Origin: Alphaproteobacteria bacterium
Lineage (GTDB): Bacteria; Pseudomonadota; Alphaproteobacteria; Rs-D84
Length of the DNA: 64,000 bases
NCBI GenBank assembly: GCA_009783145.1
Contig: WRHR01000003.1
Location: 23,019-87,018, forward strand
Direction: 5' to 3'
The position numbers were made by a program, and so were the translations under genes. The first letter of the stretch is position 1. Each line of letters starts with the position of its first letter. The notes below the pieces were generated by a model. It was not told the origin of the DNA. It saw nothing but the letters and a program-made list of their open reading frames with translations, and made no database searches. Of this stretch, positions 6,192 through 11,160 are shown one piece after another.

Positions 6192-6266
6192 CTATTTCTC
6201 CTTATAAACCATGATTAAAGAAATTAGATTAAAGAATTTTTATTCTTTATTCTTTATTCTTTATTC
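6146..6266. repeat. Family D (aaagaata)n palindromic element overlapping the start of the secreted-protein gene
   Basis: aaagaataaagaataaagaataaagaataaaaatt ... aatttttattctttattctttattctttattc. Confidence 0.8.
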
Positions 6267-6744
6267 ATTTATTAAGCTCCACTGAAATTTTTGCGGTGTC
6301 CGCAGGCACATTCGCGACATAAACCGAAAACGCGACGGTTTCCCCGGCATCCAGCAACGGGGCCGGTGGAGTGAATTTCTGCGATGCCAACTCCGCTCCG
6401 GCTGCATCTTTCATTACAACCACCAAGTCAGGCACTCCATATAACGCCTCGGAGTTATTTGCAACAACGCCGGAAACGGCGATACCGTCAGCAGCCGCAA
6501 CCGCAGAATCCATACGCACGGCCAAGGGACCCGCGGGCGCGGGCGGCTCGTACCGAAGAAGCGCTATAAATGAGAAAACCGCCAGCAGCAAAACTGCGCA
6601 AGACAGCAGAAATATCCACAAGCGCGCGCGCGACCGCCGCGTTTGAGCCCGCCAGCAATGGCCGCATACCGCGCATTCAAAGCTGCGCGCCGCGCCATCG
6701 CGGACCGAATATTCTACTTTGCAAAAAGGACAGCTTACTTTCAT
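6265..6744 (-). CDS. ZitP-like MJ0042-type zinc-finger / DUF3426 membrane protein
   Basis: N-terminal CPFC..x17..CAVCGHCW zinc ribbon, one TM segment, and a periplasmic beta-rich C-domain, matching the Caulobacter ZitP polar pilus-biogenesis regulator architecture. Confidence 0.6.
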   Translation of the reverse strand: MKVSCPFCKVEYSVRDGAARSFECAVCGHCWRAQTRRSRARLWIFLLSCAVLLLAVFSFIALLRYEPPAPAGPLAVRMDSAVAAADGIAVSGVVANNSEALYGVPDLVVVMKDAAGAELASQKFTPPAPLLDAGETVAFSVYVANVPADTAKISVELNK

Positions 6745-6759
6745 ACCAGGCCTTGTTAC

Positions 6760-8085
6760 TCAAGGGTATTCTACTATGGATTCTTCCAGATTCAAGCGGT
6801 TATATTTCATCTGAACCCGGTCCCTGATTTCGCCTATTGCCCGTATGAAATCCGACAAGGTCGCATTGCTGTTTGCGGAAACCTGGCCCATCATACTTTC
6901 CGAATCCGTCTTGGGAGTTTTCGACTCCACGCGAACCGAATCCCTCATCATCTGACCCAAGACGGCAATCGATACGTCCGCCAGCGACGCCTCGTCATCC
7001 TGCAAGTTCCAGTAATAGGACGGATTGCTTGCGTCCTCTATCCTTTCCGATACCCCAAGATGCGGCGCCACCGTGCCGGCAAAGCCGACTGTGGTAAACA
7101 GGGCGGAAACGCGCCCTTGGGTCATATCTATGGTCTGATTTACTTTCAAGACCGTGGGTTTTTCAGTTCCGCCGATGGAAAAGCCCGACAGGTTCAAATC
7201 GCCGACCCACAGATCGCCGACATCCAGCCTGGATATCCGCGCGGTGGAATTTAAGAACAATTCTTCGGTAATTTCCATATTTCTGGAATCAGCCGTCAGC
7301 GCGCCTTGGACCAATGTCTCGCCGGATATGTACAATGCGGTCTCCCAGCTGGCGCGCGGAGTAACCATAACTTTCCGCGCGGAAATCAAGTTCGTTTTCA
7401 GTATTTCTTTGAATTCCGAGCTATACGCATCCGCCCCCCCGGCCTCTTTTATCGCATATCCTCCCAAAGACAAGTCCGATGCCATGGTCGCGTCAATAGG
7501 ATCGTCCGAAGGCAGGCGCCAAAGAAAATCCCCTCCGGATAAAATGGTTCCCGTGCTTTCCACAATGGAATCCTTGCCAAACCTTGCATCAAAAATATTG
7601 GTTCTGGCGCGCCATGTTCCAAAGGCCCCGTATGTTTCGGATTTTTCTACAAAACCGGCCTCGTCGCCGCCGAGCTGCGCAATCTCGCGCGTGCGGACGG
7701 GCGAAATATCCGCGGAATCAAATATGACTATGCCGGACAGAACCGCGCGCCCGCCGCGGTCGCGCGATTTGATTATCCGCGCTTGGAACCTGCCGGTGTC
7801 TTTTGGAATATTGCCAAACTCTGCCAAGTCCTTTATGCGAACACGGGTTATGTGGGACCCGACCGGAGCCAGCAGACTGCGCTTGTTCGCATCCATATAT
7901 TTTTCCAAGGCGCCACGCACAGCGCCGATATCACGGGCGACGCGGACATTTTCGGCCCGGCGAACGCGGGAATCCAATTCGCGCAATACGAACGGCAGGG
8001 CGGCGGCGGCAATCGCAAGCGACAGAAGAATTTCTATCATCATGCTGCCAAGCTCGCTACGAAGATATTTGTTTTTTCTTTTCAT
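6760..8085 (-). CDS. Large pseudopilin-like protein with class III (type IV pilin-type) signal, paralog 3
   Basis: N-terminus KRKNKYLRSELG|SMMIEILLSLAIAAAALPF has Gly followed by Glu at +5 and a hydrophobic helix. It is paralogous to the two upstream genes (shared L.MGGY and ELMYST-type motifs). Confidence 0.55.
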   Translation of the reverse strand: MKRKNKYLRSELGSMMIEILLSLAIAAAALPFVLRELDSRVRRAENVRVARDIGAVRGALEKYMDANKRSLLAPVGSHITRVRIKDLAEFGNIPKDTGRFQARIIKSRDRGGRAVLSGIVIFDSADISPVRTREIAQLGGDEAGFVEKSETYGAFGTWRARTNIFDARFGKDSIVESTGTILSGGDFLWRLPSDDPIDATMASDLSLGGYAIKEAGGADAYSSEFKEILKTNLISARKVMVTPRASWETALYISGETLVQGALTADSRNMEITEELFLNSTARISRLDVGDLWVGDLNLSGFSIGGTEKPTVLKVNQTIDMTQGRVSALFTTVGFAGTVAPHLGVSERIEDASNPSYYWNLQDDEASLADVSIAVLGQMMRDSVRVESKTPKTDSESMMGQVSANSNATLSDFIRAIGEIRDRVQMKYNRLNLEESIVEYP

Positions 8086-9524: not shown

Positions 9525-9530
9525 TTGTTG

Positions 9531-9722
9531 CCTTGCTCGCAGAGTAAAGATTTTTCGGCTTTGCCGAAAAATCAGAGTAACGCTCGCTGCGCTCGCAGAG
9601 TAGGAGAGTAAGAGAGTATCTATAACTCCCTACTCTTCTACTCTCTTACTCTAGCAAACGCTGTGCGTTTGCGTCACTCTGCCGGCGAAGCCGGCGTTAC
9701 TCTGCGCGCTTCGCGCGCTACC
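9531..9722. repeat. Family A element, copy A2 (near-identical to A1)
   Basis: Same architecture and the same position relative to the downstream pseudopilin paralog. Confidence 0.85.
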
Positions 9723-11160
9723 CGCAATTACTTCGTCCGTCCAATCTGCATTGCTTGATGTTTATGCGGCGTTCCAAGCGGCTCCAGAAAACATACTGGC
9801 ACACAAGATTCTGCGCCACCGAGTTATTATTGTAATAAGGCGCGCCGGGCAGCCCCGAAATAATATTTCTGCAGCCGACAGTCTCGCTGTCGTCATTCCC
9901 GGGATTCTTAAGTATCTCGAACGAGTCGTTGTCTATATTTTCGGATAAAACATCCGGCAGCACGGATACTCCGGCGGGGCGAACATCCAGGATTATCGCG
10001 CCGCTGCCGCCTGCCAACAGAGAGCTTGAAATCTGATCGCGAAGGGTCAGATAAGCGGCGGATACCGTCCGCGCTTCGATTCCGCTTTTCGTGGAATACA
10101 TCAGCTCGGTGCTGTCTATGAATACATCCTGCCCGCGCGAAGCGTTTATGAACCCTGAGATTTCAAGCTGTTCGGTATCAATGGAGACATTGCTTAAAAT
10201 GGCGTCGCCATGAATATCCCAGTCATAGGGGCCGACAAAGCTTGTACGCCCAGCCGCCATCGCAAGCGAATTTAACGAAGCTGATTCGGCCTCGACAGAG
10301 CCTATCAATCCATATCTGAACAAGGTATATGCGGAAAGGGACTTCGCGATCAAATCCCCGCGCGAAATATTCAGAGCTCCCGCGCTGTCGCGCGTTTGAA
10401 ATACGGCCTTGTTCGCGATCAAAAGCTCTATCTTGTTCTTGAATCTGCGGTCGTTGCTGGATCCCGTAATGGAAAGCGTGCCGAAGCTCGCGGTATCAAG
10501 CTCCGCATTTTTTGCGGAGAGCTGTGAAATGTTTTTCACATCATAGCCGCCCATATCAAGGTCCGTATGAAATCTGTTTCGCATAATATCCTTGGAGTTT
10601 CGCCGAATCAGCTCCGAAAAGTCATCATCGATCGGGATCAGGACATATATGGCGTCCAAATCAGGTCTTATGCCGAAGTCTTTCAGATTTTTCTCCCATC
10701 CGCCGATGCCATGTAGGATGCCATTGCGGGCGGCTTCGGCGGCGTCCGACCCGATGCGCGCCATCAGCTCGCGCCGTGCGCCTGCGGATAAATTACTGCC
10801 CTTTATTACAAGCAGCGCCAAAACGCCGTTCGCGTTTTTACCGGTCATCAAGGATATTTTCTGCCCCTGCGCGGTCTGTGGAATAAAGCCCAGCGGAAGG
10901 CCGAAGGGCTCTAAAAGATCGGAGAATTCGTCGCCGCCGGCGACACGGACGCCATACCGCAGGTCATCCTTGTTGTACCTGACGAACTCGCGGGCGGCGC
11001 GGGCGGCGCGGGCCACGTGCCTGCTTGATGCGGTCATAATCTGGTCGTTTCTGCGCTCGCTCAGCCGACCTGCCAAAAAGGGCATAAAGGCCATGACCAA
11101 GGCGATTGCCAGCAAAGCTTGCAGCAAAAAGTTTCCACGGGATTCGGTGTTCAAAAACAT
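9718..11160 (-). CDS. Large pseudopilin-like protein with class III-like signal, paralog 1
   Basis: ESRG|NFLLQALLAIALVMAFMPF has Gln at +5; shares LDMGGYDV and TELMYST motifs with paralog 2. Confidence 0.5.
   Translation of the reverse strand: MFLNTESRGNFLLQALLAIALVMAFMPFLAGRLSERRNDQIMTASSRHVARAARAAREFVRYNKDDLRYGVRVAGGDEFSDLLEPFGLPLGFIPQTAQGQKISLMTGKNANGVLALLVIKGSNLSAGARRELMARIGSDAAEAARNGILHGIGGWEKNLKDFGIRPDLDAIYVLIPIDDDFSELIRRNSKDIMRNRFHTDLDMGGYDVKNISQLSAKNAELDTASFGTLSITGSSNDRRFKNKIELLIANKAVFQTRDSAGALNISRGDLIAKSLSAYTLFRYGLIGSVEAESASLNSLAMAAGRTSFVGPYDWDIHGDAILSNVSIDTEQLEISGFINASRGQDVFIDSTELMYSTKSGIEARTVSAAYLTLRDQISSSLLAGGSGAIILDVRPAGVSVLPDVLSENIDNDSFEILKNPGNDDSETVGCRNIISGLPGAPYYNNNSVAQNLVCQYVFWSRLERRINIKQCRLDGRSNCG

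Follow-up and report, generated by a model that had tools for sequence, protein, structure and literature searches.

A 64,000-nt stretch of contig WRHR01000003.1 (assembly GCA_009783145.1), hereafter the window, comes from an uncultured alphaproteobacterium of order Rs-D84 and encodes three large consecutive minus-strand proteins, here termed A, B and C, that appear to be type IV minor-pilin-like proteins related to PilV (rough probability 0.85-0.9). They are followed by a bitopic zinc-ribbon protein, termed Zn, and by a conserved secreted or periplasmic protein, termed X; the triad, together with Zn, probably makes up the tip of a type IVb pilus. A sequence-only reading that preceded this analysis had described large pseudopilin-like paralogs followed by a ZitP-like protein. 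Its four minus-strand open reading frames (480, 416, 441 and 159 amino acids) were recovered at the same positions, and its pilin interpretation can now be sharpened to minor pilins of the PilV lineage of type IVb pili with a ZitP-like partner. The kind of protein is already known, and automated annotation already labels A and the assembly protein PilO2. What is new is a set of three fixed paralogs with Gln, Glu and Glu at position +5 and with no shufflon, a ZitP-like protein and an uncharacterized secreted protein in the same invariant gene block, and a dispersed minimal motor. The five genes are as follows, the arrow marking the predicted prepilin cleavage site:

9718..11160, minus strand: gene A, predicted PilV-like giant minor pilin; 480 amino acids from ATG; motif RG↓NFLLQALLA, Gln at +5
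8274..9524, minus strand: gene B, predicted PilV-like giant minor pilin; 416 amino acids; motif HG↓AGLME, Glu at +5
6760..8085, minus strand: gene C, predicted PilV-like giant minor pilin; 441 amino acids; motif LG↓SMMIE, Glu at +5
6265..6744, minus strand: Zn, bitopic ZitP-like protein; 159 amino acids
5712..6191, minus strand: X, conserved secreted/periplasmic protein; 159 amino acids; signal peptide; 4 invariant Cys

C (stop at 6760) and Zn (start at 6744) are separated by 15 nt, as had been noted from the sequence. For A, the TTG at 11154 (478 amino acids, leader MNTESRG) is a likelier start than the ATG at 11160, because an AGGAGG sequence at 11162-11167 is 7 nt from the TTG and only 1 nt from the ATG, and because TTG 11154 is the start of A in public gene calls. 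Public annotation lists B, C, Zn and X as 'hypothetical'.

Relationship of A, B and C to PilV

In the type IVb thin pili of IncI/R64 plasmids, PilV serves as both large minor pilin and tip adhesin. The NCBI annotation pipeline names an identical copy of A 'shufflon system plasmid conjugative transfer pilus tip adhesin PilV', and a tblastn comparison of A with 72,556 plasmids matched 325 records (best E = 2e-6). All 15 of the matches listed fall on pilV genes, one of which is unannotated but co-aligning. With the PilV of an Erwinia amylovora IncI-like plasmid, A shares 25% identity over 279 residues (BLASTP, E = 2e-15). The alignment covers the context of the cleavage site, RG↓NMLLQA in PilV and RG↓NFLLQA in A, and includes the motif LNRMHTAIDMNGNNI versus RNRFHTDLDMGGYDV (NRMHTxxDMxG). 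The latter corresponds to the 'L.MGGY' motif that had been regarded as common to the triad; it is exact in A (LDMGGY), but C has LSLGGY and B has LNMAKY. Family profiles of B and C also align with the same Erwinia PilV, in hhalign at 90% for B (E = 1.5e-6, 195 columns) and at 96.35% for C (E = 1.4e-9, 297 columns).

A search of 1.84 billion representative proteins with the A-family profile gave 219 matches only, about 50 of which are full-length orthologs. The tail of the matches consists of proteins of 330-1,600 amino acids that align with the first ~220 profile positions only, and 63 of the 70 tail proteins that are at least 300 amino acids long have a G↓xxxx(E/Q) N-terminus. Of ten tail proteins scanned for families, one has a sub-threshold match to Shufflon_N and the other nine match no Pfam family. 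These profile matches suggest that PilV-like giant minor pilins form a broader superfamily that is poorly annotated. An NCBIfam scan of A, B and C yielded nothing usable, the lone match being MXAN_5187_fam on the transmembrane helix of A.

The prepilin-like character of the N-termini, first proposed from the sequence, is real and far beyond chance. It was assessed in about 80 loci, each from a different species. Gly(-1) is present in 80/80 orthologs of A, 81/81 of B and 79/79 of C. The residue at position +5 is Gln in all 80 A proteins, mostly in the form G↓NFLLQ, and is Glu in 81/81 B and 79/79 C proteins. Leaders differ in length and sequence among orthologs, while the Gly, the Glu or Gln five residues on and the hydrophobic helix that follows are kept. 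The few orthologs that seemed to lack the Gly/+5 motif were traced to over-extended open reading frame calls. All three window proteins have the features of a class III signal, i.e., a basic leader, Gly(-1), a hydrophobic segment and Glu or another residue at +5. A scan of every reading frame in the window for such an N-terminus returned A, B and C and, as a single false positive, a DUF374 membrane protein.

The three proteins are true but distant paralogs, and their similarity is limited to the N-terminal ~170-220 residues. B and C are the most readily aligned (E = 1e-8, 29% identity over 174 amino acids), followed by A and B (E = 6e-6) and by A and C (E = 0.002); divergence is greatest outside the pilin domain. 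A second motif attributed to the whole triad, (S/T)ELMYST, is present in A and B but not in C. This motif is encoded by a 22-nt tract with 95% DNA identity between B (8445-8466) and A (10090-10111). By a rough estimate, a match of 21/22 positions within 6.3 kb of otherwise diverged genes is very unlikely to arise by chance, and the tract may represent a micro gene-conversion between the paralogs.

Structures of A and B predicted with AlphaFold2 are best defined in the N-terminal domain, where block-mean values of the predicted local distance difference test are 83-95 for A (residues 11-180) and 64-91 for B. Both models display an α1 helix of ~40-50 residues followed by β-sheet, a predicted arrangement consistent with a pilin fold. 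The β-rich region that comes after this domain is poorly predicted in both models. The C-terminus of A is modelled with confidence as a Cys-containing helical module (residues 400-480) with four conserved Cys. Since a Foldseek comparison of the A model with the PDB gave no match with E < 1, the evidence from folds is supportive but moderate, and the pilin assignment is based mainly on sequence. The negative Foldseek result, the absence of an assigned Pfam or NCBIfam family and the absence of a peptidase from the regions searched are also what is expected if A, B and C are not pilins, but ordinary bitopic or Sec-exported proteins in which an N-terminal transmembrane helix mimics a class III signal and the similarity to PilV is compositional. 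Set beside the Gly(-1) and +5 residues found in every ortholog counted, and the PilV alignments that extend well beyond the N-terminal helix, this interpretation is disfavoured and highly improbable.

The assembly motor and a proposed pilus tip

In a scan of one genome per species, the A family is found in 259 genomes, all from uncultured Alphaproteobacteria. They include 'Candidatus Enterousia', 'Rickettsiales bacterium', a complete chromosome of 716 kb and metagenome-assembled genomes from the gut of termites, ruminants, humans and birds; this group is GTDB order Rs-D84. Genomes of this order are 0.67-1.6 Mb in size and lack flagella, the tricarboxylic acid cycle, respiration and standard transporters, and the genome survey mentions type IV pili for another lineage only (PMC12306168). 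The order DUF4167 (divergent), A-B-C-Zn-X-RluD is found in all 82 loci analysed, and outer flanks vary. A, B and C are kept 1:1:1 and in fixed order, with no loss or change in copy number. The locus is chromosomal, with serS/typA and rluD as flanks, and in the window rluD and X overlap by 8 nt. The two bordering genes of the block are:

4745..5719, minus strand: rluD-type pseudouridine synthase, housekeeping; PseudoU_synth_2 in orthologous loci; last gene of the block
11298..11588, plus strand: small DUF4167-like gene, divergent from A; PF13763 E = 2e-4, below cutoff

An origin of the locus from a recently integrated IncI-like element was considered and rejected, as the block is vertically conserved, lies between housekeeping genes and has ordinary GC content. 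Records L005, L006, L008 and L028, which carry this alphaproteobacterial locus and include chromosome OZ246409.1 (716 kb), bear the title 'uncultured Muribaculaceae bacterium', apparently through a taxonomic error in the source entries.

A set of four genes of a type IV filament motor is present elsewhere in the window:

53039..54280, minus strand: PilO2-type type IVb assembly protein; 413 amino acids; NCBI name 'type 4b pilus protein PilO2'
52456..53064, minus strand: PilP-type biogenesis protein; 202 amino acids; signal peptide; TIGR03021 pilP_fam 39.6 bits, cutoff 34.65
50734..52377, minus strand: assembly ATPase, PilQ/GspE/PilB class; 547 amino acids; PF00437 T2SSE E = 4.6e-65
49500..50585, minus strand: inner-membrane platform, PilR/GspF/PilC class; 361 amino acids; PF00482 T2SSF E = 4.7e-20, in two stretches

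The order PilO2-PilP-ATPase-platform is identical on an IncI-type reference plasmid. The 50-kb module with which the sequence-only reading had associated the triad is a matching R64-type assembly core, in that PilP passes TIGR03021 and PilO2 is recognized both by its NCBI name and by its orthologs, most of which match PF06864 PAP_PilO. The window PilO2 also aligns with an Erwinia plasmid PilO2 (BLASTP E = 5e-4). The assembly ATPase scores under every NCBIfam equivalog cutoff. Readings of the triad as TadE/TadF/TadG or GspK proteins were rejected, as there are no Pfam or NCBIfam matches and the motor accessories are PilO2 and PilP in place of Tad or Gsp proteins; the TadG-like and GspK-like alternatives raised with the original description are likewise unsupported, the motor not being of the Tad type.

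Motor and triad share contigs in at least six lineages, where orthologs of PilO2 and of the triad are on contigs of equal size (87,524, 124,637, 89,450, 355,004, 77,240 and 495,405 bp). The distance between the two is ~40 kb in the window and ~100 kb in the L002/L089 scaffold. In two distant relatives (L089 and L090), the motor genes are situated between lpxK-lpxC and gyrB. The cassette is the only type IV filament motor seen, is of the matching R64 type and is co-inherited with the triad, and from this we infer that A, B and C are likely to be assembled by it. Type IV secretion genes, encoding a TraG/VirD4-like coupling protein and VirB4, are found in relatives within ~10 kb of the triad or the motor (L002 1-619, L090 196-2616, L089 1-1220), and one relative has a CBASS-like SMODS+SAVED pair near the motor.

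The best explanation, held with moderate confidence, is a mechanism in which A, B and C would be made with a short basic leader that a prepilin peptidase would remove by cutting after the invariant Gly. Cleavage would expose the hydrophobic α1 helix, which would pack into the core of the pilus. The N-terminal ~180-220 residues would constitute the pilin domain, and the remaining ~200-260 residues would form β-rich, probably β-helix-like surface modules, with A ending in its Cys-rich helical module. The filament would most likely be assembled by the R64-type cassette at 49.5-54.3 kb. One copy each of A, B and C would give a heteromeric tip or initiator complex. A would be the tip-most subunit, with no need of Glu5, and B and C would dock beneath it via Glu5; the co-transcribed Zn, with X, would probably help with placing the complex in the envelope or with its assembly there. 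Ng et al. describe a docking model in which the tip-most subunit has no need of Glu5, and subunits that dock below require it to neutralise the N-terminal amine of the subunit above (PMC5207764). CofB, a minor pilin of the type IVb class, trimerises at the pilus tip and primes assembly (PMC6048534). A heteromeric complex with A (Gln5) as its cap is suggested by the fixed 1:1:1 order, by the conserved C-termini and by the presence of Gln5 in one member only. Its precedents are the CofB and TcpB homotrimers and the GspK-I-J heterotrimer. It is the proposal we favour, tentatively and at somewhat less than even odds.

The main rival to this tip complex is that A, B and C are alternative tip adhesins, used one per pilus and directed at different receptors, i.e., a hard-wired shufflon in which fixed genes replace the switching of PilV C-termini by inversion. 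C-terminal variants of the PilV adhesin do select different recipients (PMC9045228, PMC5430464). The triad diverges most outside the pilin domain, and the modelled C-terminal parts resemble β-helix adhesins. However, conservation is flat along A, B and C (0.52-0.56 mean pairwise identity), and over ~80 species the C-terminal blocks are as conserved as the N-terminal pilin domain, unlike adhesins that chase receptors. In addition, all three genes are retained without loss or copy-number change, and the systematic Gln5 of A versus Glu5 of B and C suits different structural positions better than interchangeable roles. No shufflon-like repeats, alternative C-terminal segments or recombinase were seen at the locus. 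Interchangeable adhesins are therefore unlikely, on the strength of these conserved C-termini and of the fixed gene complement.

Perhaps the filament does not reach the cell surface. A, B and C with the four-gene motor might form a periplasmic pseudopilus (endopilus), a short filament that moves cargo in the manner of the pseudopili of the type II secretion system or of competence. No secretin or major pilin is found near either locus, here or in the related genomes examined, and one large subunit without Glu5 together with Glu5 subunits recalls GspK-I-J. The reduced genomes have no standard transporters (PMC12306168), and type IVb pili can secrete proteins (PMC10120004). On the other side, the proteins show sequence affinity with components of surface thin pili (PilV, PilO2 and PilP) and not with Gsp or Com proteins; a periplasmic piston would not be expected to carry large C-terminal modules of an adhesin-like kind; and a secretin could be encoded elsewhere in the genome. 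A pseudopilus is a poor prospect, less probable than the interchangeable adhesins.

Several observations weigh against the proposed PilV-derived, surface-exposed tip. A, B and C have no Pfam match, including Shufflon_N (PF04917), even at E <= 1, whereas plasmid PilVs match Shufflon_N at E = 1e-100 to 1e-185; the triad proteins are therefore to be seen as remote PilV relatives and not as ordinary members. The middle and C-terminal parts of the A and B models are of low confidence. Peptidase_A24, a secretin and a small major prepilin were not found in the window and the 10 kb past its left end, by Pfam scans of ~35 window open reading frames and a regular-expression scan of all reading frames, and no secretin PilN, major pilin PilS or peptidase PilU is found beside the motor in the window, L089 or L090. 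In view of these negative results, cleavage and display at the surface are unproven. Among the 82 loci the triad is never found within 10 kb of the motor, despite their co-occurrence across the lineage. Plasmid PilVs have either Gln or Glu at +5, so that Gln5 of A is inherited from the PilV lineage and is no proof of capping. Lastly, rluD is also inside the invariant block, and adjacency in compact genomes is not by itself proof that Zn and X share a function with the triad.

Taken to its fullest extent, the proposed tip complex leads to a picture of a minimal, dispersed filament system in Rs-D84. This would consist of the four-gene motor and an obligate heterotrimeric, PilV-derived tip, with A as cap and B and C beneath, that is matured or positioned by the mini ZitP-like protein and X, perhaps with neither a conventional major pilin nor a secretin, and that serves in attachment to, or uptake from, partner cells. 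As a whole this picture is speculative, and we regard it as doubtful in its full form.

The zinc-ribbon protein, protein X and intergenic repeats

From its sequence, Zn is predicted to have a cytoplasmic CxxC-x15-CxxC zinc ribbon, one transmembrane segment and a periplasmic domain of the DUF3426/FxLYD type. In the window protein, matches to Zn_ribbon_4 (E = 2.6e-4) and DUF3426 (E = 1.2e-3) are both below Pfam cutoffs, and the NCBIfam FxLYD_dom score is 29.5 bits (cutoff 23). Among 30 orthologs, Zn_ribbon_4 is detected in 29 (best 8.7e-8) and DUF3426 in 18 at E < 0.01 (best 2.9e-6). In these orthologs C24 and W31 do not vary, and C5, C8 and C27 are nearly invariant; the other invariant residues are G92, N96, G103 and P105. 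In the PDB, the Zn-family profile matches the ZitP zinc finger 2nb9 best (E = 0.0014), on a par with ribosomal S27e. The 2nb9 sequence has C5, C8, K18, R24, R27, C28, C31, R34 and W35, matching the ZitP zinc finger as described, in which W35 and the basic patch R24/R27 are both needed for binding to PopZ (PMC5182065). A Trp equivalent to W35 is present in Zn. The R24/R27 patch is not conserved, being Arg/Glu in the window protein and variable in orthologs (FEC, VKC, VRC). The DUF3426 domain of ZitP is required for Tad pilus biogenesis; ZitP, which also binds PopZ, recruits CpaM and the CpaC secretin (PMC5182063). Neither a PopZ nor a CpaM gene was seen in the window. The ZitP-like character originally proposed for Zn holds at the level of architecture as judged from sequence, and Zn is not a demonstrated ZitP ortholog.

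X always comes after Zn, in every complete locus. FSTSTDW, DGFPC and four Cys are invariant, no Pfam match was found in 30 orthologs, and there is no similarity to IncI PilM or PilL/TcpQ. Around the start of X is a 36-nt inverted repeat, (AAAGAATA)n, with arms at 6145-6180 and 6235-6270 that are 97% complementary. One arm encodes the signal peptide of X, and the other is in the spacer between Zn and X, adjoining the stop codon of Zn. On a transcript, these sequences would form a long AU-rich hairpin across the X start, possibly with a role in translational or stability control.

The spacers that precede B and C contain a repeat element:

9525..9717, minus strand: A-B spacer, palindromic GAGTA-octamer/hairpin repeat element
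8086..8273, minus strand: B-C spacer, same palindromic repeat element as in the A-B spacer

The regions upstream of B and C, taken from just past the stop codon of the preceding gene as far as codon 11-12, are 86% identical over ~225-260 nt. The Gly(-1) codon marks the end of the similarity, and the leader part is identical at 33/36 nt. A near-identity of 11 codons and ~40 bp of upstream DNA had been described for these genes; 11-12 codons are indeed shared, but the upstream part is the whole spacer. Each spacer has (A/T)GAGTA octamer arrays around a TATCTATAAC core, flanked by small GC hairpins. Related sites are found at 8086-8273, 9525-9717, 30790-30880, 33440-33570, 33965-34020 and 47295-47410; the octamer arrays are inverted, and the GC hairpins are GCAAACGCGAAGCGTTTGC, GCCGGCTTCGCCGGC and GCGAGCGAAGCGAGCG. 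The search pattern for the element gave 19 matches versus 0 expected. These sequences look like a modular family of intergenic palindromes that resembles repetitive extragenic palindromic (REP) sequences and bacterial interspersed mosaic elements (BIMEs), or miniature inverted-repeat transposable elements (MITEs).

Related genomes lack the repeat element in their triad spacers. From the stop of A to the Gly codon of B there are 229 nt here, compared with a median of 28 and a maximum of 117 nt in 78 other genomes; the distance from the B stop to the C Gly codon is 224 nt, compared with a median of 45.5 and a maximum of 115 nt. The shared leader, MKRKNKYLRSE.G, is of the type found in C orthologs (MKNKRKYFNNENG), and leaders of B orthologs end in ...(E/Q)Q(R/K)G. 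In its simplest form, the history suggested by these sequences would be an insertion of the repeat element upstream of C, after which the element and the C leader were copied to a position before B. The B cleavage motif and mature protein were untouched by the copy, as expected if only the part past the Gly matters after processing. It had been suggested that a shared regulatory and leader cassette is carried on the repeat element. The duplication is real, lineage-specific and palindrome-borne. A scan of the locus for promoter and terminator consensus sequences found no more matches than in shuffled sequence, and for this reason no promoter or regulatory role is claimed for the element.

Elsewhere in the window, the segment 58000-64000 is low in GC (0.37 vs ~0.50) and encodes a Peptidase_M78 protein, a Beta_protein and a phage P4 cII-like protein. 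These genes are also found, in another sample, on a separate 10.8-kb contig with a resolvase. This segment is probably a mobile element or defence island.

Comparison with known systems

To our knowledge, type IVb minor pilins are known as single genes, forming homotrimeric tips (CofB, TcpB) or varied by a shufflon (PilV). A conserved PilV-like trio with one member that lacks Glu5 would be a natural heterotrimeric version of the type IVb tip, and it gives a clean way to test the model in which Glu5 is dispensable in the first subunit. It also provides an initial clue to a surface organelle in Rs-D84 ("Ca. Enterousia"), an uncultured and widespread lineage of gut bacteria whose genomes measure 0.7-1 Mb and for which the published survey reports no flagella (PMC12306168). 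A Zn-ribbon/DUF3426 protein of the ZitP type is here linked to a type IVb system and not to Tad, and informed names are now possible for B, C, Zn and X.

Zn resembles ZitP of Caulobacter crescentus (CCNA_02298) in having an MJ0042-type CxxC...CxxC ribbon, a Trp after the second CxxC, one transmembrane segment and a putative periplasmic domain of the DUF3426 type, as well as in its linkage to a type IV filament system (PMC5182065, PMC5182063). It differs in size, with 159 amino acids and almost no cytoplasmic linker compared with 311 amino acids in ZitP, and in Cys spacing, which is x15 in Zn and x19 in ZitP. Furthermore, ZitP serves the Tad/Cpa (type IVc) pilus via CpaM and binds PopZ.

CofB of the CFA/III (colonization factor antigen III) pilus of enterotoxigenic Escherichia coli and TcpB of the toxin-coregulated pilus (TCP) of V. 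cholerae are encoded by single genes, form homotrimers and have Glu5, whereas the triad consists of diverged paralogs with one Gln5, for which a heterotrimer is proposed. There is no detectable sequence similarity between these proteins and the triad. The C-terminal folds probably differ, the triad having a β-helix-like form in place of an H-type lectin.

The type II secretion system has GspK-GspI-GspJ, a tandem pilin-like trio in which the large member without Glu5 caps the tip. This tip complex is also discussed in connection with the docking model (PMC5207764). The likeness to the triad is in the tandem arrangement of three different pilin-like proteins with one large Glu5-less member. The triad has no similarity to GspK, GspI or GspJ as judged by the lack of Pfam matches, all three of its proteins are large, and the motor accessories are PilO2 and PilP in Rs-D84 but GspL, GspM and GspC in the type II secretion system.

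The comparison with PilV of IncI1/IncI2 plasmids (R64, TP114) shows several shared properties. PilV and the triad proteins are large (400-480 amino acids) type IVb minor pilins or candidates for that role; the RG↓NxLLQ cleavage context is found in A and in Erwinia and Yersinia PilV; ~200-300 N-terminal residues can be aligned, including NRMHTxxDMxG; and both are paired with a PilO2-PilP-ATPase-platform motor of identical gene order. Plasmids have a single PilV gene with C-termini switched by the shufflon, whereas Rs-D84 has three fixed paralogs with conserved C-termini. The triad is chromosomal and vertically inherited in one alphaproteobacterial order and is not part of a plasmid or island pil operon (pilL-V). 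It is also apart from its motor and has no adjacent PilS, PilU or PilN.

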